This document shows positions 5,502-19,609 of a stretch of 20,000 bases of DNA, in pieces. The stretch is from an uncultured virus (IMG/VR IMGVR_UViG_3300025840_000026) (Duplodnaviria > Heunggongvirae > Uroviricota > Caudoviricetes). Position 1 is the first letter of the stretch; each line of letters opens with the position of its first letter. The DNA lies in the IMG/VR virus record IMGVR_UViG_3300025840_000026; one strand, 5' to 3'. The notes under the pieces were generated by a model. The model searched no databases and was not told the DNA's origin. It saw nothing but the letters and a program-made list of their open reading frames with translations. A program made the translations under genes and the position numbers.

Positions 5502-6122
5502 ATGTATGAATTAGTTGAAGAAGCAAGTAAGGTTCTAAGAACCCCACCACAACTATTTGACTTTGAAACAAGGACTGATGCAGAAGAGATTGCATCTAAG
5601 TTAAAGGAAGCTATGCAAAGATTTGGTGGTATTGGTCTTTCTGCAAATCAGGTAGGAATTGATGCAAGGGTCTTTGTGATGAAATCCGAAGACAAGGGTG
5701 TTGTAGCATTCTTCAACCCTGAATTAAAAAGAGTTTCACAAGACACAGACTTGATGAAAGAGGGGTGTCTTTCCTTTCCTGATGTATACCTCATGATTAA
5801 AAGGTCAAAAGTAGTAGAACTAGACTACCAAGATGAGAAAGGAGAAAAACATACACTAGTATTAGATGGACTTGCAGCTAGATGTGTTCAACATGAAATA
5901 GACCACTTAAATGGTATTCTTTTTCTTCAGAGAGCATCTAGACTGAAACTTGAAAGGGCTCTTAAATCTAGACCCAAAGAACAAAGAAAAAGAATTGAAT
6001 ATGAAAAACGAATGGCAATTGCAAAATACATCCAATCCCAATCCAATTTGGGAAGTTCCGAACCTGCTGTCGGAGAATCAGTGCAGGAAACTGATACAGT
6101 GGTTCAGAACACACAAGCATAA
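5502..6122 (+). CDS. def: Peptide deformylase
   Basis: All three PDF motifs: GIGLSANQVG, EGCLS, QHEIDHLNG. Confidence 0.95.
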   Translation: MYELVEEASKVLRTPPQLFDFETRTDAEEIASKLKEAMQRFGGIGLSANQVGIDARVFVMKSEDKGVVAFFNPELKRVSQDTDLMKEGCLSFPDVYLMIKRSKVVELDYQDEKGEKHTLVLDGLAARCVQHEIDHLNGILFLQRASRLKLERALKSRPKEQRKRIEYEKRMAIAKYIQSQSNLGSSEPAVGESVQETDTVVQNTQA

Positions 6123-9904: not shown

Positions 9905-11143
9905 ATGAACAAAGAACTTATAACCGTTCTGAAGTCCGTTGTAGTAAACGGCAAACCCTTCCACTTTACCCCTGATAGAAAGGAGTTCTTGGAAACACTT
10001 CAATCTTCATATCCCAATAAGGTTGAATTTACTAAAGAGGAATTAAATACTGTTGGAGATTTCCCATACTGGGTCAAGTCTGCAAGGTATGACTTCAATC
10101 AAGGTAATGGGATTTTTAATCTATCCCAAGTTATGGGTAATGTAGTTGCAATGACTACACCATCCAAACCTAGAAGTTTTTCAATTCCTGCAAAACCAGT
10201 TTCTAATATGCCTGTTGCAGCTCAGACTGAAACATTGAATGTGTTGGAAGATAATATCAAAATCATTCCTGAGAAGATGTCGAACTACGTTCCTTTTGGA
10301 CACTTCAAAGATATTGATAATATTATCAAGTCTAAAATCTTCTTTCCAGTATTCGTGACTGGTCTTTCAGGTAATGGTAAAACATTGATGATTGAACAAG
10401 TGTGTGCAAAACTGAAGAGGGAACTCTACAGGGTCAATATCACCATCGAGACAGATGAAGATGATTTGATGGGTGGACACACTCTAGTCAATGGTAACAT
10501 TACTTTCAGAGAAGGCCCTGTTATCAAAGCAATGAGAAAAGGTGCAGTCCTTCTCTTAGACGAAGTTGACTTGGGTTCTAACAAACTAATGTGTCTACAA
10601 TCAGTTCTTGAAGGTAAAGGATACCTAATCAAGAAAACTGGTGAGTGGGTGACACCTAAAGAAGGTTTCACTATCCTTGCAACTGCAAACACCAAAGGTC
10701 AAGGTTCTGAAGATGGAAAGTTCATTGGAACTCAAATCATGAACGAGGCAATGTTGGAAAGGTTTGCAATCACAATGCAACAAGAATATCCACCAGTGAC
10801 TACTGAAAGAAAAATTCTTTCAAAAGAAATGGAATTGACTGGAGACGTTGACGAAGAGTTCGTGACCAAACTAGTAGACTGGGCAGACATAATCAGAAAG
10901 ACTTTCTACGAAGGTGCAATTGATGACGTTGTCACTACTAGAAGACTGGTTCACATTGTGAATGCATACAGAATGTTTGGTGACAAACTTAAGTCCATTC
11001 AAATGTGTATCTCAAGGTTTGACGAAGATACTAGGACTGCAATCCTAGACCTCTACACCAAGATTGATGCAGGGGTTGACTTAAATGCAGAAAACCCTGT
11101 TGACGAAAACGACTCATCAGAGTATAATGAATCTTATGAGTAA
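9905..11143 (+). CDS. cobS: CobS/MoxR-like AAA+ ATPase
   Basis: Walker A GLSGNGKT, ETDEDDLMGG, Walker B LLLDEVD, ATANTKGQG, NEAMLERF, TTRRLVHI; the phage CobS type. Confidence 0.9.
   Translation: MNKELITVLKSVVVNGKPFHFTPDRKEFLETLQSSYPNKVEFTKEELNTVGDFPYWVKSARYDFNQGNGIFNLSQVMGNVVAMTTPSKPRSFSIPAKPVSNMPVAAQTETLNVLEDNIKIIPEKMSNYVPFGHFKDIDNIIKSKIFFPVFVTGLSGNGKTLMIEQVCAKLKRELYRVNITIETDEDDLMGGHTLVNGNITFREGPVIKAMRKGAVLLLDEVDLGSNKLMCLQSVLEGKGYLIKKTGEWVTPKEGFTILATANTKGQGSEDGKFIGTQIMNEAMLERFAITMQQEYPPVTTERKILSKEMELTGDVDEEFVTKLVDWADIIRKTFYEGAIDDVVTTRRLVHIVNAYRMFGDKLKSIQMCISRFDEDTRTAILDLYTKIDAGVDLNAENPVDENDSSEYNESYE
11100..11128 (+). promoter_or_regulatory. Sigma70-type promoter inside the cobS 3' end
   Basis: TTGACG-17 nt-TATAAT; ATG 11136 is 7 nt downstream, no SD. 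Confidence 0.7.
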
Positions 11144-11423
11144 AAATATTAACTACAAGTATAATGAGGACAAACTCCTGAAGGAGTTTTCCTCGTATCT
11201 TGACCAAACCTATGACCAACACTATAGTTTAAATCAGTTCCAAGCTACGGAATTTATTTTAGATAGTGGTCATGGTGAGGGATTCTGTATTGGCAACATA
11301 CTTAAGTATGCACAACGATACGGTAAAAAAGATGGGTATAATCGTAAGGATTTGTTGAAGGTCTTACACTACGCTCTTATTGCTTTACATAACCATGACC
11401 TTCAACACGAGGAAAAAAAATAG
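11136..11423 (+). CDS. DUF3310-like small protein (T7 gp1.7 nucleotide-kinase related)
   Basis: QHY...GEGFCIGNILKYAQRYGKKDG...DLLKVLHY motif; start moved to ATG 11136. Confidence 0.7.
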   Translation: MSKNINYKYNEDKLLKEFSSYLDQTYDQHYSLNQFQATEFILDSGHGEGFCIGNILKYAQRYGKKDGYNRKDLLKVLHYALIALHNHDLQHEEKK

Positions 11424-12094
11424 TGATGAAAATATCTACCAATACAAGGAGTGTTCTCAAAAACTTTTCTACGATTAATTCAGGAATTAGAGTGAAATCA
11501 GGAAACAAGTTGGAGACCATTTCACAAATGAAAAATATTCTTGCAGTGGCAACGGTGAATGAAAGTTTCCCTCAAGATTTTAGTATCTATAACCTACCTG
11601 AATTTCTTGGTGCAACCTCTTTAATGGAAGACCCTGAATTTCAATTTGGTGACAGTTCTATGACTGTTGCAGATAACAATACAACTATGGCATATTTTTA
11701 TGCAAGTGATGGTATGGTGACTGCACCTGAAAAGATGATTACAATGCCTGATGCAGAAATTGGGTTTGATATCAGTTCACAATTATTAGGTGACCTTAAC
11801 AAAGCTGCAAGTGTCTTGAATGTAAATGACCTAGTTCTAGAATCAGACGGAACAAAAGTTACACTTACTGTAAAAGATAAAAAGAATGCAGCTTCTAATA
11901 CATTCTCTAGGATTGTAGGAGAAAATACTACAGGGGTAAAATACTCTATGAACTTCAAAATTGAGAACTTGAAGATTTTAGATGGAAACTATAGTGTCTT
12001 AGTTTCATCAAAAGGTATTTCACACTTCAAGAATAAAGACATTGATTTAAATTACTTTATTGCATTAGAACCTGATTCAAAATACAATGTCTGA
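11423..12094 (+). CDS. gp45: Sliding clamp
   Basis: MKIS...LKNFSTINSGI, FSIYNLPEFL, NFKIENLKILDGNY, YFIALEPDS; precedes gp44 (GTG 11423 or ATG 11426). Confidence 0.95.
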   Translation: MMKISTNTRSVLKNFSTINSGIRVKSGNKLETISQMKNILAVATVNESFPQDFSIYNLPEFLGATSLMEDPEFQFGDSSMTVADNNTTMAYFYASDGMVTAPEKMITMPDAEIGFDISSQLLGDLNKAASVLNVNDLVLESDGTKVTLTVKDKKNAASNTFSRIVGENTTGVKYSMNFKIENLKILDGNYSVLVSSKGISHFKNKDIDLNYFIALEPDSKYNV

Positions 12095-12104
12095 ACTATA
12101 TAAT
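12076..12104 (+). promoter_or_regulatory. Putative promoter for the gp44 leader
   Basis: TTCAAA-17 nt-TATAAT; predicted +1 near 12111, the first base of hairpin 1. Confidence 0.45.
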
Positions 12105-12110
12105 ATAGTA

Positions 12111-12211
12111 GTGTTTAGAGAATCCAGTCTCGGCTCTTTACACGGGAGTAGTCCAATCTCATCATCCTTCTTTGGGGGACTACACGTGAATTCGGTGGGG
12201 AGTTCACATCT
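12111..12211 (+). ncRNA. Candidate structured cis-regulatory RNA (5' leader of gp44)
   Basis: GC-elevated gap with three consecutive hairpins: GUGUuuAGAG/CUCUuuACAC, GUAGUCC/GGACUAC, GUGAAUUC/GAGUUCAC; the last covers the SD. Confidence 0.6.
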
Positions 12212-13150
12212 ATGAACGAATTCTTATTTGTAGAAAAATACAGACCTCAAACAATTGAGGATACCATACTACCTGAAAGACTTAAACAAACATTTAAAGA
12301 GTTTGTAAAACAGGGTGAGATACCAAATCTTATGTTGTGTGGTTCTGCTGGTATCGGTAAGACCACTGTTGCAAAAGCATTGTGTAATGAACTTGGTGCA
12401 GACTTTATCGTAATCAATGGTTCAGACGAAGGAAGATTGATTGATACACTTAGAACCAAAATCAAAAACTTTGCATCAACAGTTTCACTAAGTGGTGGCC
12501 CTAAAGTTGTTATTCTAGATGAGGCAGATTATATCAGTGCAGAAAGTGTTCAACCTGCACTACGAAATTTTATAGAAGAGTTCTCTTCAAACTGTAGATT
12601 CATATTCACTTGTAATTATAAGAATAGAATCATTGTCCCTCTACACTCTAGAACAACAGTCATTGACTTTACAATGACACCTGATGATAAACAAAAACTT
12701 GCAACTCTTTTCCATAAAAGAATTATGGAAATCTGTAGTCTTGAGAATATTGAATATGATGAAAAGGTTTTGGTTGAACTGGTTATTAAGTTCTTCCCTG
12801 ATTTTAGAAGATGCATCAATGAGGTTCAGAGATATGGTGTTAGTGGTGTAATTGACAGTGGTCTTCTTGCAACACTAAGTGAAGAAAAACTTACACCATT
12901 GATTCAAACACTACAAAACAAAAACTGGTCTGCAATGAGAAAATGGGTTGGTCAAAATTCTGATAATGATTTCAATACACTTTATCGTAAAGTGTTTGAT
13001 GCACTCGAACAGAAACTTGAACCATCTTCAATTCCAGCTGTAGTTCTTATCATTGCAGATTATCAACACAAGTCTGCATTTGCAATGGATAGTGAGATTA
13101 ACTTTGTTGCATGTCTCACTGAAATAATGTCGGAGTGTAAATTTAAGTGA
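12212..13150 (+). CDS. gp44: Clamp loader large subunit (RFC-like AAA+)
   Basis: LFVEKYRP, GSAGIGKTT, INGSDEG, ILDEAD, CRFIFTCN, PLHSR, FPDFRR. Confidence 0.96.
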   Translation: MNEFLFVEKYRPQTIEDTILPERLKQTFKEFVKQGEIPNLMLCGSAGIGKTTVAKALCNELGADFIVINGSDEGRLIDTLRTKIKNFASTVSLSGGPKVVILDEADYISAESVQPALRNFIEEFSSNCRFIFTCNYKNRIIVPLHSRTTVIDFTMTPDDKQKLATLFHKRIMEICSLENIEYDEKVLVELVIKFFPDFRRCINEVQRYGVSGVIDSGLLATLSEEKLTPLIQTLQNKNWSAMRKWVGQNSDNDFNTLYRKVFDALEQKLEPSSIPAVVLIIADYQHKSAFAMDSEINFVACLTEIMSECKFK

Positions 13151-14031
13151 GAGAAAAGGAGTATAAACAACTACTTCCTTTTGACCCAAATAAAAAAGTA
13201 TTAGACCAATTTGGTTGGAATCCTGTTTCTGTTGTTAAACCAACTAAGTCATCTAAAAAGATGTGGAGTCGTGCCTATCTAGACAATGTCGAATATAGAA
13301 GAGGGGAAGACATTGAGTATCTTGCAGGATTAAAGTTTAGTGAATTTCATGCTGGTATGGCAGAAAACATTATTCACTATTGGTCAATGAAGGGTGCAAA
13401 AGTTGTCGACCCATTTGCAGGAAGACTAACACGTGCATATGTAACTTCAAGTCTCGGTAGAACTTATGAAGGATACGATGTCGTTCAAAGAACCGTAGAT
13501 GAATCTAACAAAGTTTTAACTGAAGATAACTTAAATGGAATCATCCATGTTGGAAATGGATGTGTCATGGAGAAGACGGAATCAGAAACAGCTGACTTAG
13601 TATTTACTTGTCCACCATACCACCAATTAGAAAAATATGAATCTGTCGATTCCCAATTATCAGACATAGGAAGTTATGATGACTTCCTTACACAGATAGA
13701 TATATGTGCAGAAAACTGTCACAGAGTGATGAAAGAAGGTGCATTTTGTGTATGGGTTGTGGGTGATTGGAGAGAGAAAGGCATTTACAGGTCTTTCCAC
13801 TCTGACCTCATTACTATCATGCAAAATCAAAAACTAAAACATCATGACACTATAATTATGGAGAACCAGTCACCCTTTGCATCCCTTCAACTAGGAAAGG
13901 TTGCAGCTAATCGTTATACAAGTAAGATACATGAATTCATACTTGTATTTAAAAAAGAGGGTATACTAAATCCTGTATCTCATGATATAATGGATAACAT
14001 AAACTTGGAGGCTTTTTATGGGACAATATAA
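13147..14031 (+). CDS. Amino (N4-C/N6-A) DNA methyltransferase
   Basis: SAM-binding VVDPFAG followed by catalytic FTCPPY; HRVMKEGAF and HEFILVFKK segments; GTGA overlap with gp44. Confidence 0.82.
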   Translation: MREKEYKQLLPFDPNKKVLDQFGWNPVSVVKPTKSSKKMWSRAYLDNVEYRRGEDIEYLAGLKFSEFHAGMAENIIHYWSMKGAKVVDPFAGRLTRAYVTSSLGRTYEGYDVVQRTVDESNKVLTEDNLNGIIHVGNGCVMEKTESETADLVFTCPPYHQLEKYESVDSQLSDIGSYDDFLTQIDICAENCHRVMKEGAFCVWVVGDWREKGIYRSFHSDLITIMQNQKLKHHDTIIMENQSPFASLQLGKVAANRYTSKIHEFILVFKKEGILNPVSHDIMDNINLEAFYGTI

Positions 14032-14317
14032 TGATAAAGTAGAGAGACAGAGAATTCTCTTAGAAGCAGAAGAATGGGCAAAGGGGATAAAATCCATTCA
14101 TGCACATTCTCTTAATTCAATGTGGTATGACACAAGACCACAAGATACACTTGAAGGTGGTGTGTTAGACGTTACTTTTAATGATGAATCTATCAAAAGA
14201 GAACTAAAAAATGGTGAGATTGTTTGGATGAATGGAGATAAAAAAACTGGTGATGAACTTATTGACCATTATGTCAGAACCGTATCACCAACTCAAACAC
14301 AATCACTACTTAAATAA
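14018..14317 (+). CDS. Hypothetical protein, 99 aa
   Basis: SD GGAGG before ATG; fills the gap between the methyltransferase and gp62. Confidence 0.75.
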   Translation: MGQYNDKVERQRILLEAEEWAKGIKSIHAHSLNSMWYDTRPQDTLEGGVLDVTFNDESIKRELKNGEIVWMNGDKKTGDELIDHYVRTVSPTQTQSLLK

Positions 14318-14319
14318 TA

Positions 14320-14712
14320 ATGGATAAGACTAATCCTTTTGACTTTGTCAAGTCAGTGTCACATACAAAAAAAGACATCATGTTTGATGAAGTCGAGGAG
14401 AAGTCTTACGCTCCTTTCTTAACCAATAAAGCATTATCTTATCACCAAGATTCGATATTCTTCGCTAATGAAATCAATTGTAGACACAGTCTAGATAACC
14501 GTCTTCAATACTCGTTTTTTCTAAATACTCTAAGAAAAAGAAATCGTTTTTCTAAGTGGGAGAAACCCTACATTAGCACAAAACTCGATGTAATTAAAGA
14601 TTATTATCAGATATCAACTAGAGAAGCACAAGACTACATGACACTTCTATCTGATAAAAATATTCGTGAGTTGAAGAAAAGAATGAACATTGGTGGTAAG
14701 AATAATGGATAA
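14320..14712 (+). CDS. gp62: Clamp loader small subunit
   Basis: PFDFVKSV, YAPFLTNKALS, FANEIN, LQYSFFLNTLRKRNRFSKW, IGGK end; directly before regA. Confidence 0.92.
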   Translation: MDKTNPFDFVKSVSHTKKDIMFDEVEEKSYAPFLTNKALSYHQDSIFFANEINCRHSLDNRLQYSFFLNTLRKRNRFSKWEKPYISTKLDVIKDYYQISTREAQDYMTLLSDKNIRELKKRMNIGGKNNG

Positions 14713-15112
14713 CCTAGAACAACAAATACAAGACCTAGTCGAGGTCACATTTCCCGAAAAGGATGACTTTTTAAAGATAAGAGAGACTTTGTCTAGAATT
14801 GGTGTAGCTTCACGAAGAGAACAAGAACTATTTCAATCATGTCATATCCTGCACAAACGTGGAAAATACTATATTGTGCATTTCAAAGAATTATTTAAAC
14901 TTGATGGTAAACCTACTAATATCGATGAAAGTGATATTGGTAGAAGAAATACCATTGTTAAACTATTAGAACAGTGGAAATTGGTGAGTATTGTGGATAA
15001 ATCGAAAACAGAAGAACCACTAACACCACTTTCACAGATAAAGATTATTCCCTTCAAAGAGAAAAACCAGTGGAAACTTACAACTAAGTATTCCATCGGT
15101 TCTTCAAATTGA
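14705..15112 (+). CDS. regA: Translational repressor RegA
   Basis: DDFLKIRETLSRIGVAS, LFQSCHILHKRGKYYIVHFKELFKLDG, RRNTI, KY-IG end; start moved to ATG 14705. Confidence 0.96.
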   Translation: MDNLEQQIQDLVEVTFPEKDDFLKIRETLSRIGVASRREQELFQSCHILHKRGKYYIVHFKELFKLDGKPTNIDESDIGRRNTIVKLLEQWKLVSIVDKSKTEEPLTPLSQIKIIPFKEKNQWKLTTKYSIGSSN

Positions 15113-16034: not shown

Positions 16035-16310
16035 ATGGAAACTGATATAGCAAGTATAGTAAGTGAATATGGGTTTCCTGTAGTTATGATGGTGGGTCTT
16101 GGATACTTTATATATTTTCTTTGGAATTTTATAAATGACGAGATAGACCCTCATATTGAAAAAATGCATTTTACACTCATTAGAGTAATAGACCAAGTAA
16201 GAATGCTTGACCAAGATTTAATACGACTTCAACAAAAGGTAAACGTAGTTTTAGAGTATAAGAATAGAGATAAATTGAAGTCGGAAGGAGAAAACAAAAA
16301 GAATGATTAA
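16035..16310 (+). CDS. Single-pass membrane protein with coiled coil (paralog B; YvrJ/BhlA-like pattern)
   Basis: EYGFPVVMMVGLGYFIYFLWN TM segment aligns by eye with paralog A; heptad-like region follows. Confidence 0.8.
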   Translation: METDIASIVSEYGFPVVMMVGLGYFIYFLWNFINDEIDPHIEKMHFTLIRVIDQVRMLDQDLIRLQQKVNVVLEYKNRDKLKSEGENKKND

Positions 16311-16881
16311 GAAAGATTGGGAACTGTTAAAGAAACAGCAAGGGTCAAATATTTGGAGTGGTTTGGATATGTTTAGAGCCATGTGTTTCGGTGTTATCAT
16401 CGGAATCTTTATGGGTTTAATTATTGCATTTCCAGTCCATGCAAATCCAATCGTATTTCAATTTAAAAATCCTTCCTTTAGTGGGGTAGGAACGGGTTCT
16501 CATTATCTTACAATTGAAAACCAAGAGTTCTCAAGGAAGAAACAAATAGAGGATGCTTTGGAGGCAGCACGTAAAGCTGCAGAAAGAGAAGCAGATAACT
16601 CCACACTTTCAAAGTTTATTAGAAACTTAGAGAGTAGAATTTATGCACAGATGGCTAAACAATTAGTAGAGTCAATGTTTCAAAATGACAGTGCAGTAAG
16701 GTTTGGTTCATTTGTATTAGAAGGTTCCACAGTAACCTATGAAGTGATCACTCAAGCAGACGGAAGTGAAAGTATTAGAATGACTATAGTTGGGCCCGAT
16801 GGGACTGAAACAGTAATAGAGATTCCAATAGGAACAGGATACTTCGGGAGTGATTATGGGACGACTACTGACGGGGGTTAG
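16303..16881 (+). CDS. csgF: Curli assembly protein CsgF-like
   Basis: Signal peptide ending PVHA, then IVFQFKNPSFSG (compare CsgF FQFRNPNFGG); FIRNLESRIYAQMAKQL; GTETVIEIP end; adjacent to csgG. Alternative start 16369. Confidence 0.82.
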   Translation: MIKKDWELLKKQQGSNIWSGLDMFRAMCFGVIIGIFMGLIIAFPVHANPIVFQFKNPSFSGVGTGSHYLTIENQEFSRKKQIEDALEAARKAAEREADNSTLSKFIRNLESRIYAQMAKQLVESMFQNDSAVRFGSFVLEGSTVTYEVITQADGSESIRMTIVGPDGTETVIEIPIGTGYFGSDYGTTTDGG

Positions 16882-17782
16882 TCTTTTATATCTTGTCCTT
16901 TTAACAGGTTGTGCATCTGTCCCTCGTTGGTCAGATAATCCACAAGATTGTGACCCCTCAACATGGGGCCCCGAATACAATCATGATTTAGTGAATTACG
17001 CTGCCGCTGCTGGTAGAACATTTGAAAGAGCAATGCCTTTTATTTGTGTAGATGACCCTGAAGTAATTAAACTTCCTTCTTATATTGAACTACTAACACT
17101 ACCACCATCAGAGACTATGCCTGTGGTTGCAGTATATCAGTTTCAAGATAAAACAGGACAAAGAAAATCAGAACAAAATATTGCATCGTTTTCAACGGCA
17201 GTTACCCAAGGTGGAACTGAGATGTTAATCGATGCACTTAAAACTGCTGGACAAGGAACTTGGTTCAGAGTTGTAGAGAGACAAGGACTGGACAATCTAG
17301 TCAGAGAAAGACAAATTATACGTAGTGGAAGACAAGAAATTGCAGAAGCTATGGGAGAAGAAGCACAAGGTATACAACCTCTTTTATTTGCAGGGATGAT
17401 AATAGAGGGGGGAATAATTGGGTATGACAGTAATTTATTAACTGGGGGTCGTGGAGCACGATACCTAGGTATAGGAATGAGTAGACAATATCGAAAGGAT
17501 GCAGTTACAGTATCAGTTCGTGCAGTTTCCGTTCTTACTGGTGAAGTTTTATTAAACGTCCAAACACGTAAGACTATATTGTCTTATGGTGGAGCAGGAG
17601 ACATCTTCAGATTTATAGAAGAAGGAACTCGACTTGTAGAATATGAGGACGGAGTGGGTAATAATGAATCAGTGACTTTTGCAACTAGGTCTGCTATTGA
17701 AGCAGCCGTTTACGAAATGATTCAACAAGGAAACCAAAGAGGATTTTGGTCTATTGGAGAATCTCAGGAGAAAAAAGGATGA
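16856..17782 (+). CDS. csgG: Curli secretion channel CsgG-like outer-membrane lipoprotein
   Basis: Lipobox LLTGC; VAVYQFQDKTGQRK, FSTAVTQGGTEMLIDALK, WFRVVERQGLDNLVRERQIIR, IIEGGIIGYDSN, TGEVLLNVQTRKTILS, NESV. Confidence 0.93.
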   Translation: MGRLLTGVSLLYLVLLTGCASVPRWSDNPQDCDPSTWGPEYNHDLVNYAAAAGRTFERAMPFICVDDPEVIKLPSYIELLTLPPSETMPVVAVYQFQDKTGQRKSEQNIASFSTAVTQGGTEMLIDALKTAGQGTWFRVVERQGLDNLVRERQIIRSGRQEIAEAMGEEAQGIQPLLFAGMIIEGGIIGYDSNLLTGGRGARYLGIGMSRQYRKDAVTVSVRAVSVLTGEVLLNVQTRKTILSYGGAGDIFRFIEEGTRLVEYEDGVGNNESVTFATRSAIEAAVYEMIQQGNQRGFWSIGESQEKKG

Positions 17783-18510
17783 AGAAATTTTTATTAACAT
17801 TTACTACATTATTGGTGATAAGTTCATCTCTTTCTGCACAAGCAACTGATGATAACGAAATCAATATAGAGCAAGTTGGTGATACACTAACACTTTATAT
17901 TGACCAAGTGGGTTATGGTAACAAGATAGGGTTGGACAACTTTTCAAGTAGTTCAAGTGCTATGCCTATTACTGGAACTTCATTAACATTCGATATTGAT
18001 CAGATTGGTAATGAAAACTTACTATATGGAACATTGACAGCCGATTCATCAACATATAATCTTCTTTTCACAGGGGATGGAAATATATGGGATTGGTTAA
18101 TAGGTGATACTGGGTCATCAGACTCATCAACAATTGATGTAGACATTACTGGTGATTCTAACACTATGGATTTTGACCAAGGTAGTTTGTTTAGTGCTGA
18201 AAGATTGGACTTTGATTTTACACTTTTAGGTTCGTCTAATGTGTTTGATGTTGACATTGAGGCTGATGATGTTATTTGGAACTTCGATATAACAGGAGCT
18301 TCAAACAACGTTTTAACACTTCAAAAAGATGGTGCATATAATGAAATTAATTTCACGTTAGATGGTGATTCAGCTGACATTGATATTAAACAATTAAGTG
18401 GCACTTGTCCATCAGGTGTAAGCACTTGTTTTGGTGTTATAACTTTAGATGTTACCTCAGATAATGCAGTTATTCAGATTAACCAAAAAGACAACGCTAA
18501 CGATAGTTAG
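17779..18510 (+). CDS. Secreted curlin-repeat (CsgA/CsgB-like) beta-solenoid protein, 243 aa
   Basis: ATGA overlap with csgG; Sec signal MKKFLL...SLSA; roughly 11/22-residue repeats such as NEINIEQVG, LYIDQVGYGN, FDIDQIGNEN, VDITGDSN, FDITGASN. Confidence 0.75.
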   Translation: MKKFLLTFTTLLVISSSLSAQATDDNEINIEQVGDTLTLYIDQVGYGNKIGLDNFSSSSSAMPITGTSLTFDIDQIGNENLLYGTLTADSSTYNLLFTGDGNIWDWLIGDTGSSDSSTIDVDITGDSNTMDFDQGSLFSAERLDFDFTLLGSSNVFDVDIEADDVIWNFDITGASNNVLTLQKDGAYNEINFTLDGDSADIDIKQLSGTCPSGVSTCFGVITLDVTSDNAVIQINQKDNANDS

Positions 18511-19609
18511 TCTTCTATTCTCCTTTGGGTGTTTTGCAGAAGACCCCATTGGAGAAGTAGAGGAGTTCACAGGAATAGGGGCACTACTTAGAAGTGGTGA
18601 AACCTTAGATAGTCCTTTGGGAACTGAGGTCGTTTTATACGATGAAGCAAAGACTGGAAATGGTCGAATGCTTATTCGTTTTTTAGATGATGAAGAACTT
18701 GCACTTACTGAAAACACTTATGCATTTATCGATGAAGCATACTATGACCCTGACCCATCTTTATCTAAGATGTCTATACGAATGGTTAGAGGAACAGCTA
18801 GGTTTGCTTCAGGTTCAGGTGCAAGAATTAGAAGTGCAAATATCAATGTAGAAACACCTACAGCACAAATAACAATAAGAGGAACAAACTTTACAACAAC
18901 CATAGATGAACTCGGAAGGTCTTTGATTGTTCTTCTACCTGATGAAGACGGAGTTACACCTTCAGGTCAGATAGATGTGACTAATGATGGTGGAACAGTT
19001 ACACTTAGTGAATCCTATGCAGCTACAATGGTCTCTAGTTTTGAACAACCACCAACACAACCCGTAACAATTCAAAATATTACACTTAATATAATCGACA
19101 ATATGTTTATTGTCAATCCACCAACAGAAGTAAAACGTGCAATTGAAGAACAAGCACAAAATGATTTAGATTCTGACAGTGGAATACTTGACGTAGATTT
19201 CTTAGAGTTCAATGAATTAGAACAAGATACACTTGCAGACACTACAGAAGACTTAGAATACTCTGAGTTAGATATAGATATGTTAGGAGTAGATTTCTTA
19301 GTTGACCTTTTAGACGTTGTTGAAGAACTAATTAGAACTACAGAAGTTTCTTCAGATTCACAACAGGGTGGTTCAACAGGTCAAGTTGCACTTATTGGTG
19401 CAGCGATAGGATTCAATCAAGATTCACAATACAACATTTTCTTAGAAGACCAAAACATAATCTTCTATAGAGAGGTGGGGGGTAGAATTAGAATCATTTT
19501 ACGACAGGACTCTGAGACTAAGATTACAACTTATGTCGATGGATACACAGGAGATATAAAACTTAATGGTGGGACAGACTCAACCATTGTTATATCACAG
19601 TTCAACTAA
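18464..19609 (+). CDS. Secreted FecR-domain protein with acidic C-terminal region
   Basis: Signal peptide ending GCFA; IGEV, DEAKTGNGRMLIRFLD..LALTENT, VRGTARFASG, VETPTAQITIRGTNF typical of the FecR domain. Start probably ATG 18464. Confidence 0.8.
   Translation: MQLFRLTKKTTLTIVSLLFSFGCFAEDPIGEVEEFTGIGALLRSGETLDSPLGTEVVLYDEAKTGNGRMLIRFLDDEELALTENTYAFIDEAYYDPDPSLSKMSIRMVRGTARFASGSGARIRSANINVETPTAQITIRGTNFTTTIDELGRSLIVLLPDEDGVTPSGQIDVTNDGGTVTLSESYAATMVSSFEQPPTQPVTIQNITLNIIDNMFIVNPPTEVKRAIEEQAQNDLDSDSGILDVDFLEFNELEQDTLADTTEDLEYSELDIDMLGVDFLVDLLDVVEELIRTTEVSSDSQQGGSTGQVALIGAAIGFNQDSQYNIFLEDQNIIFYREVGGRIRIILRQDSETKITTYVDGYTGDIKLNGGTDSTIVISQFN

Follow-up and report, generated by a model that had tools for sequence, protein, structure and literature searches.

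A structured RNA of about 100 nt lies between the genes for the sliding clamp (gp45) and the clamp-loader large subunit (gp44) in a clade of T4-like myoviruses, and the comparison of relatives shows that it is a real, strongly supported and widespread RNA family. It consists of three hairpins in series, with stems that covary freely, segment lengths that are fixed and unpaired blocks that are invariant, a combination that indicates sequence-specific recognition. The element matches no Rfam family, and a characterisation of it in print is very likely absent.

The window (the whole stretch of 20,000 nucleotides that was analysed) is part of the replication module of a T4-like myovirus. The genes that surround the element are the following.

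11423..12094, + strand: gp45 sliding clamp gene, the upstream neighbour of the element (Pfam gp45-slide_C, E 6.9e-12; PHROG 223, E 1.4e-69)
12212..13150, + strand: gp44 clamp-loader large subunit, directly downstream of the element (PHROG 168, E 1.4e-121; Pfam Gp44_lid, E 3e-15)
13147-14031: N6/N4 DNA methylase, overlapping the gp44 stop (Pfam, E 1.1e-17)
14018-14317: 99-aa ORF before gp62, without Pfam or PHROG family
14320..14712, + strand: gp62-like clamp-loader small subunit, in an apparent operon with gp44 (Pfam Phage_clamp_A, E 1.1e-10)
14690..15112, + strand: RegA translational repressor homologue, a candidate trans factor (Pfam Translat_reg, E 1.5e-41)

The spacer between gp45 and gp44 measures 117 nt in the window, and the coding sequences of gp44, gp62 and RegA (Pfam) all lie downstream of the element on the same strand. 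The closest cultured phages, HTVC008M and Mosig, reach a gp44 identity of merely 61%, a value that is equalled by Prochlorococcus phages, and the window thus represents, as judged from its sequence, an uncultured lineage of marine T4-like myoviruses.

The minimum free energy fold of 12111-12211 consists of exactly three hairpins (-32.5 kcal/mol), which together with their linkers have the following anatomy.

12111..12143, + strand: H1 hairpin, with an internal loop and an apical loop that carries the conserved CAGUCUC (12125-12131)
12144..12147, + strand: J1/2 linker GGGA (G, G, G and A in 61, 61, 60 and 61 of 61 sequences; length 4 in 61/61)
12148..12183, + strand: H2, in which 12148-12154 pairs with 12177-12183 (7 perfect bp) around a large loop
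12158-12176, + strand: H2 loop, with CUCAUCA (12158-12164), then a variable insert, then GGG (12174-12176)
12184..12185, + strand: J2/3 linker AC (A in 57/61, C in 61/61; 2-3 nt in 58/61)
12186..12207, + strand: H3, with a 7-bp stem and the 8-nt loop CGGUGGGG (12193-12200)
12197-12202, + strand: Shine-Dalgarno-like GGGGAG, made up of H3 loop and two stem bases

An earlier note on this DNA had proposed the same three hairpins, and their coordinates were confirmed base by base. Its H1 at 12111-12143 was recovered together with the 2x2 U-U internal loop but not with the 8 bp that had been counted, as the fold contains 10 pairs (4+4+2) and a 3-nt bulge. The seven perfect base pairs of H2 stood unchanged, as did the placement of GGGGAG partly in the stem of H3, where its last two bases lie. 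The GC-elevated gap that the note had remarked upon is equally present, with a GC content of 0.45 in 12100-12199 against 0.26-0.33 just 5' and 0.31-0.34 just 3' of it. Folding energy by itself is modest evidence, because z is only -2.42 for 12111-12211 (shuffles -24.98 +/- 3.11 kcal/mol; 3 of 200 fold equally well) and -1.76 when the flanks are included (12095-12225; 11 of 200 shuffles equal). The weight of the evidence is carried by the relatives. Within the window, the H3 loop word CGGNGGGG is found once only, and CTCATCA and CAGTCTC occur at chance frequency.

Relatives were collected by a gp44-based search of viral contigs, which yielded 80 loci. In the 35 loci with 72-94% gp44 identity the gp45-gp44 spacers are 106-140 nt long, with the exception of locus L028 (195 nt). 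The other 45 loci have 58-63% gp44 identity, and a recognisable gp45 is located upstream in 37 of them; the spacer measures 2-59 nt in 21 of these, and the gap is larger in the other 16. The spacers of HTVC008M and Mosig measure 18 and 26 nt. A covariance model trained on 31 distinct spacers matched all 35 loci of the close clade and none of the 45 sister-clade loci, and it gave no match in T4, HTVC008M or Mosig. The model is a clean clade marker. The element occurs in a single copy: the window has one match of 88.7 bits with a runner-up of 14.9 bits, and each of six related records (one of them 153.5 kb and 81% complete) has one copy as well. A strict pattern of 22 bases, built from the invariant blocks, was present in at least 120 viral contigs. 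Of these, 81 loci were examined, and every one has gp45 upstream and gp44 downstream, on the same strand as the motif. A loose pattern of three blocks was of little use in viral contigs, where its matches were mostly due to chance and 17 of 80 loci passed the covariance model. Among genome contigs the strict pattern gave nine matches, eight of which were chance and one true (L411, 84.5 bits). The latter is a 39-kb contig with the gp45-motif-gp44 layout that is binned in a Rhodobacterales MAG, and this binning could be a hint to the host or an error.

Locus L028 deserves separate mention. It has a divergent copy of the motif (39 bits, at 1300-1404), followed after 2 nt by a tRNA-Gly(GCC) at 1406-1479, which ends some 20 nt before gp44. 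A search with the L028 gp44 as query for variants of the invariant loops revealed no close relative.

Downstream of the motif the conserved genes of the clade are the 99-aa ORF, gp62 and regA. The DNA methylase that follows gp44 in the window is absent from all 80 related loci and is therefore a recent insertion peculiar to this phage; for the same reason a link between the element and SAM via this methylase fails. With the exception of L028, all motif loci that extend over the position of the 99-aa ORF contain it, and none of the 45 sister-clade loci does. The co-occurrence of ORF and motif reflects one shared ancestry and not independent events. An alpha/beta fold is predicted for the ORF product (pLDDT 79), for which the PDB held no fold match at E <= 0.001 and the protein atlas nothing usable. 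As a candidate binding partner the ORF was given no function by Pfam, PHROG or the predicted fold.

We aligned 61 distinct sequences to the covariance model to describe the family. The order of the parts is H1, J1/2, H2, J2/3, H3. In the family, H1 comprises 11 pairs and an internal loop, and its apical loop reads YYAGUCUC, of which the letters AGUC.UC are retained in 58-61 of the 61 sequences. H2 has 7 bp and a loop composed of CUCAUCA, a variable insert of 1-11 nt and GG(U), in which CUCA and UC are present in 61/61 and GG in 59/61. The J2/3 linker is AC(U). The 7-bp stem of H3 closes the 8-nt loop CGGNGGGG, which has GG.GGGG in all 61 sequences; the remaining base N is U in 30 of them, A in 22 and C in 9. 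The H3 hairpin measures 22 nt in 60/61. The geometry is thus fixed (7 bp in H2 and H3, 8 nt in the H3 loop, 4 nt in J1/2), and five unpaired blocks (AGUCUC, GGGA, CUCAUCA, GG and GGNGGGG) are about invariant while the stems vary freely. In total, some 25 unpaired bases per element are nearly invariant.

The earlier note had made its proposal depend on conservation and covariation among relatives, and both turned out to be very strong. In a plain MAFFT alignment of 31 sequences, which was not fitted to the structure, 89.8% of the structure cells pair, against 71.6% in shuffles and 43-52% in controls in which the structure was slid. The number of cells with a double change was 188 versus 55 in shuffles, and none of 500 shuffles attained the observed values. 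The alignment of the 61 sequences, which leans toward the model to which it was made, gave 92.1% paired cells versus 63.4%, and compensatory double changes in 24 of 25 pairs. More specifically, double changes were seen in 10 of the 11 family pairs of H1, and all seven pairs of H2 and all seven of H3 covary, with 99.5% of the H2 cells being paired and at most five pair types per H2 position. In an independent mutual-information scan of the alignment, helix pairs account for 15 of the 20 highest ranks; the remaining five are indel columns next to each other or neighbours of helix positions, and the scan revealed no additional long-range pair. G-U/U-G cells (158) far outnumber A-C/C-A cells (21), and the folded strand is therefore the gp44-sense RNA.

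The earlier note could not assign the RNA to a known family, and this was borne out. At gathering score, no Rfam 15 family matched anywhere in the 20-kb window; at E <= 10 the region 11950-12400 had only five matches of snoRNA type (9.9-18 bits, with cut-offs of 35-100), and in nine related loci only the tRNA of L028 and one weak miRNA match were found. The SAM-II/SAM-V and preQ1-II riboswitches are pseudoknots that sequester the Shine-Dalgarno sequence. The element resembles them in the possible pairing of a pyrimidine-rich loop with a G-rich ribosome-binding segment and in being a short 5' leader. It differs from them in that no Rfam match was obtained at E <= 10, that the gene context offers no ligand, and that its loop pairing is without support from covariation.

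A comparison with T4 is instructive since the junction is the same: the site lies between genes 45 and 44, and the downstream order is 44, 62, regA. The T4 spacer likewise has a hairpin and a TATAAT, and the window also encodes a RegA homologue. The T4 spacer is, however, only 50 nt long and contains one small hairpin with a UUCG loop before the TATAAT, followed by a GAGG Shine-Dalgarno sequence. In T4, RegA represses the translation of gene 44 at an AU-rich, unstructured site. The element in the window, in contrast, is G/C-rich and structured, and does not correspond to an operator of that type, that is, an unstructured AU-rich site overlapping the initiation region. An AU-rich stretch is present around the gp44 ATG in many relatives, outside the motif. 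Post-transcriptional control of the T4 replication genes, the textbook example of such control, employs the unstructured sites of RegA, the hairpin of gp43 and the pseudoknot of gp32. The gp43 operator shares the general layout of H3, in which a short stem with a loop of 8 nt closely precedes the start codon, and the operators of gp43 and gene 32 share with the element that a structured RNA is located directly 5' of a replication gene. They concern another gene and, for gp43, one hairpin versus three, and we claim no sequence likeness. The gene 32 pseudoknot is also named in excerpts of PMC10690425.

The latter study (Fremin et al. 2023, PMC10690425) is, according to the same excerpts, a screen of IMG/VR intergenic regions, and two rows of its supplement table are of direct relevance. 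DNAVirus_3658 is 55 nt long, comprises 120 sequences and has 3 covarying bases, and DNAVirus_8780 is 90 nt long, comprises 68 sequences and has 1 covarying base. Both are unnamed, and both are placed there, mainly on marine Caudovirales contigs, at most 25 bp upstream of genes that have AAA/Rad17/DNA_pol3_delta2/'44' domains. As far as these table rows go, both are shorter than the element and come with no described structure or function. Compared by these rows alone, they may be partial models of the element, and if so, the element has been catalogued in that supplement but is undescribed there. In the literature on RNA motifs of phage clamp loaders and on gp44 riboswitches we found no description of it.

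The element is directly preceded by a promoter-like sequence.

12076..12104, + strand: promoter-like element, -35 TTCAAA, 17 nt, -10 TATAAT (10/12 matches)

The earlier note had taken the TATAAT to place a transcription start at the first base of H1, and the sigma-70-type scan agrees with this in that TATAAT ends at 12104 and the predicted +1 is near 12111. The -10 sequence is part of a TA-rich box (TATAAATA, CATAAATA, CTATATAWTA) just after the gp45 stop, which is found in 28 of the 31 distinct spacers; L022, L028 and L029 lack the box yet have the motif. Within the window the TATAAATA and CTATATAWTA forms of the box are not enriched. The same scan for sigma sites and terminators over 11400-13300 of the + strand revealed no terminator-like site, and the tails after H3 in relatives have no U runs as an intrinsic terminator would have.

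At the other end of the element, GGGGAG ends 9 nt before the gp44 ATG at 12212, and other genes in the window have AGGAG or GGAGG 5-9 nt upstream. For the 59 relatives in which the distance was assignable (one start being mis-assigned), the distance between the end of the GGGG in the H3 loop and the start codon is 10-12 nt in 24 members, 14-20 nt in another 27 and 26-33 nt in a further seven. The members with N=A have a GGAGG core and carry UU after the H3 loop in 19 of 22 cases, and in those with N=U or C the purine run is continued by AG or GG in 25 of 39. A Shine-Dalgarno-like core is thus present in every member of the family. A ribosome-binding role of the H3 loop would fit most members, but not those with a long spacer or L028.

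The stretch is present in nine runs that are recorded as metatranscriptomic. In three of the four RNA libraries examined, the contigs run unbroken from gp45 through the motif to gp44. In the fourth, they end at 12132 and resume at 12167, with a depth of 11.5 before the gap (gp45 side) and 3.6 after it (gp44 side). Such contigs reveal neither strand nor ends nor level, and DNA may be contained in these libraries; what they show is presence only.

Two pairings that involve loops had been put forward in the earlier note. The complementarity of CUCAUC in the H2 loop to GGUGGG in the H3 loop is indeed present in the letters. In the family the duplex CUCAUC/GGNGGG is worth -7.5 kcal/mol with N=U, -4.6 with N=A and -3.5 with N=C; its middle pair is standard in 30 of 61 sequences only (N=U), with no compensating change seen, and L028 retains the pairing via two one-sided changes. 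The second proposal, the H1 loop with CGGGA, likewise holds as complementarity in the letters, but its fifth pair (G12132-C12143) would need a C that is already paired within H1, and no more than 3 of 61 relatives have a standard pair there. The pairing of the H1 loop with GGGA is sterically doubtful, because the top of an 11-pair hairpin would have to meet the four bases directly after its own base without a linker, which by ordinary helix geometry should not be feasible with H1 intact. Covariation speaks neither for nor against either pseudoknot, since the bases involved show no variation. For the CUC in the H2 loop there are alternative partners in GGGA (-3.7 kcal/mol) and in the GG located further 3' within that loop (-3.4 kcal/mol), and competing partners would be what a switch needs.

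What the element does can be approached from its position. We consider that there is about an even chance, on present sequence evidence, that it is a clade-specific, cis-acting leader of about 100 nt on the gp44-(variable genes)-gp62-regA mRNA. Cis control is the best reading because the element lies strictly 5' of gp44, on the sense strand, with a Shine-Dalgarno-like loop near the start. The cis-regulatory role that the earlier note suggested is favoured by the same invariable position, and the regulation itself we infer. In the proposed mechanism, the G-rich H3 loop would be, or would abut, the gp44 ribosome-binding site, and the CU-rich loops, above all the CUCAUC of H2, would be its complementary partners. 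A trans factor that reads the invariant loops could then tip the G-rich loop toward exposure or sequestration, by which clamp-loader synthesis would be set independently of gp45, and a second transcript, started from the TA-rich promoter-like box, would begin with H1. As candidate reader, a protein of the phage, such as RegA, gp44/62 or the product of the clade-specific 99-aa ORF, is more likely than a small molecule, since there is neither a regulon nor a metabolic context. The placement of the H3 loop 10-20 nt before the start in 51 of 59 members is consistent with the layout of a protein-bound operator. Nevertheless, the H3 loop cannot be the Shine-Dalgarno sequence everywhere, because it lies 26-33 nt from the start in seven of the 59 and L031 has a separate GGAG nearer to the start codon. 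Other observations that sit uneasily with a cis-acting leader are the tRNA-Gly that separates the motif from the ribosome-binding site in L028, the middle pair of the H2-H3 loop duplex, which is non-standard in half of the family and leaves a weaker duplex with N=A or C, and the lack of further long-range covariation in the alignment. In addition, the motif precedes one gene only, so that no regulon points to a ligand or a protein.

Several of these observations would suit a stand-alone or processed small RNA, transcribed from the TA-rich box or cut from a gp45-gp44 transcript, that acts in trans; such an RNA could use its CU-rich loops to pair with Shine-Dalgarno regions in other mRNAs, or its G-rich loops to titrate a protein. 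We regard this as unlikely. The promoter-like box stands directly before H1 in 28 of 31 spacers, but the other three keep the motif without it. In L028 the processing of the tRNA-Gly by RNase P would release the motif, which evidently tolerates separation from gp44 there, but L028 is a single divergent case without a close relative. The distance to the start codon ranges from 10 to 33 nt, and invariant exposed loops are suited for pairing with an invariant trans partner; against such an RNA, synteny and orientation with gp44 are strict (81/81), no terminator follows H3 on the + strand, and contigs from three RNA libraries read through. The contig break and depth step in the remaining library are a weak hint from a single run and not evidence. 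The same break and step at the motif would also agree with passive punctuation of the mRNA, a boundary of processing or stability that uncouples the level of gp45 from those of gp44/62 by 3' protection of the gp45 mRNA and 5' protection of the gp44 mRNA, with no sensing involved. T4 offers a precedent in the stable hairpin that is followed by TATAAT in its 50-nt 45-44 spacer. The probability of this explanation is low, as generic stabilisers need neither five invariant blocks nor the fixed geometry of 8 nt, 7 bp and 4 nt that is maintained across 61 sequences.

The invariant unpaired bases amid covarying stems, the fixed geometry and the location in a 5' leader near a ribosome-binding site are features that are expected for a small-molecule riboswitch, in which contacts between the loops would shape a pocket from loop and linker bases, and the ligand would hide or expose the H3 loop. 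Covariation and synteny indeed define a conserved, structured, aptamer-like domain in a 5' leader, and, according to the excerpts of PMC7029224, the probable hosts of these phages rely on riboswitches. The domain does not, however, recur in front of several genes of a pathway: each genome has a single copy, invariably upstream of gp44, and nothing in this one context indicates a ligand. Moreover, the downstream gene encodes a replication ATPase and not a metabolic or transport protein, the three hairpins are arranged serially without a multi-helix junction, and there is no Rfam riboswitch match, not even a weak one. We therefore hold a riboswitch to be improbable. The wider proposition, namely that the element represents a new class of RNA sensor in the form of either a riboswitch or an RNA-protein switch that depends on a ligand, is similarly a long shot. 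If it were true, the invariant loops would make up the binding pocket by contacting one another, and the sensor would gate the synthesis of the clamp loader, and through it both replication and late transcription, in this abundant and uncultured lineage.

Protein coding was rejected. A 42-codon ORF at 12087-12215, the TGA of which overlaps the gp44 ATG (ATGA), could in principle make the region a small protein gene, and a start-to-stop ORF spans the motif in 46 of 61 sequences, some frame is open in 49 and many indels are multiples of three. But 12 of the 61 bona fide carriers of the motif have stops in all three frames and there is no codon periodicity, the third position being the least variable (entropy 0.761 vs 0.875 and 0.913). 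The sole variable base of the H3 loop would be a second codon position, segment lengths also change by 1 and 2 nt, and the changes in the stems are paired compensatory substitutions. Taken as an explanation of the conservation, a small protein is extremely improbable. Any translation of this ORF would unfold the RNA.

Abundant marine relatives of T4 carry a far more elaborate RNA at the 45-44 junction than T4 itself. Finding its binder would show how these phages set the ratio of clamp to clamp loader, and the element could yield a new RNA-protein or RNA-ligand pair. The phage group is pelagimyophage-like, with a curli operon, and a riboswitch scanner found nothing in pelagimyophages according to the excerpts of PMC7029224.

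The curli-type cluster occupies 16303-19609 of the window and comprises CsgF (E 1.6e-13) and CsgG (E 3e-56), then a Curlin-repeat-like ORF and a FecR-domain protein. Such a cluster is described for pelagimyophages in the excerpts of PMC7029224, where these phages are stated to be without CsgA/CsgB. In view of this statement the Curlin-repeat-like ORF (17746-18510), the match of which is just below the Pfam cut-off (20.4 vs 20.7 bits), may be worth a look. Elsewhere in the window, a peptide deformylase (Pfam, E 7e-42) is encoded at 5502-6122 and an AAA_5 ATPase of the CbbQ/NorQ type (PHROG 249, 'porphyrin biosynthesis') at 9905-11143.
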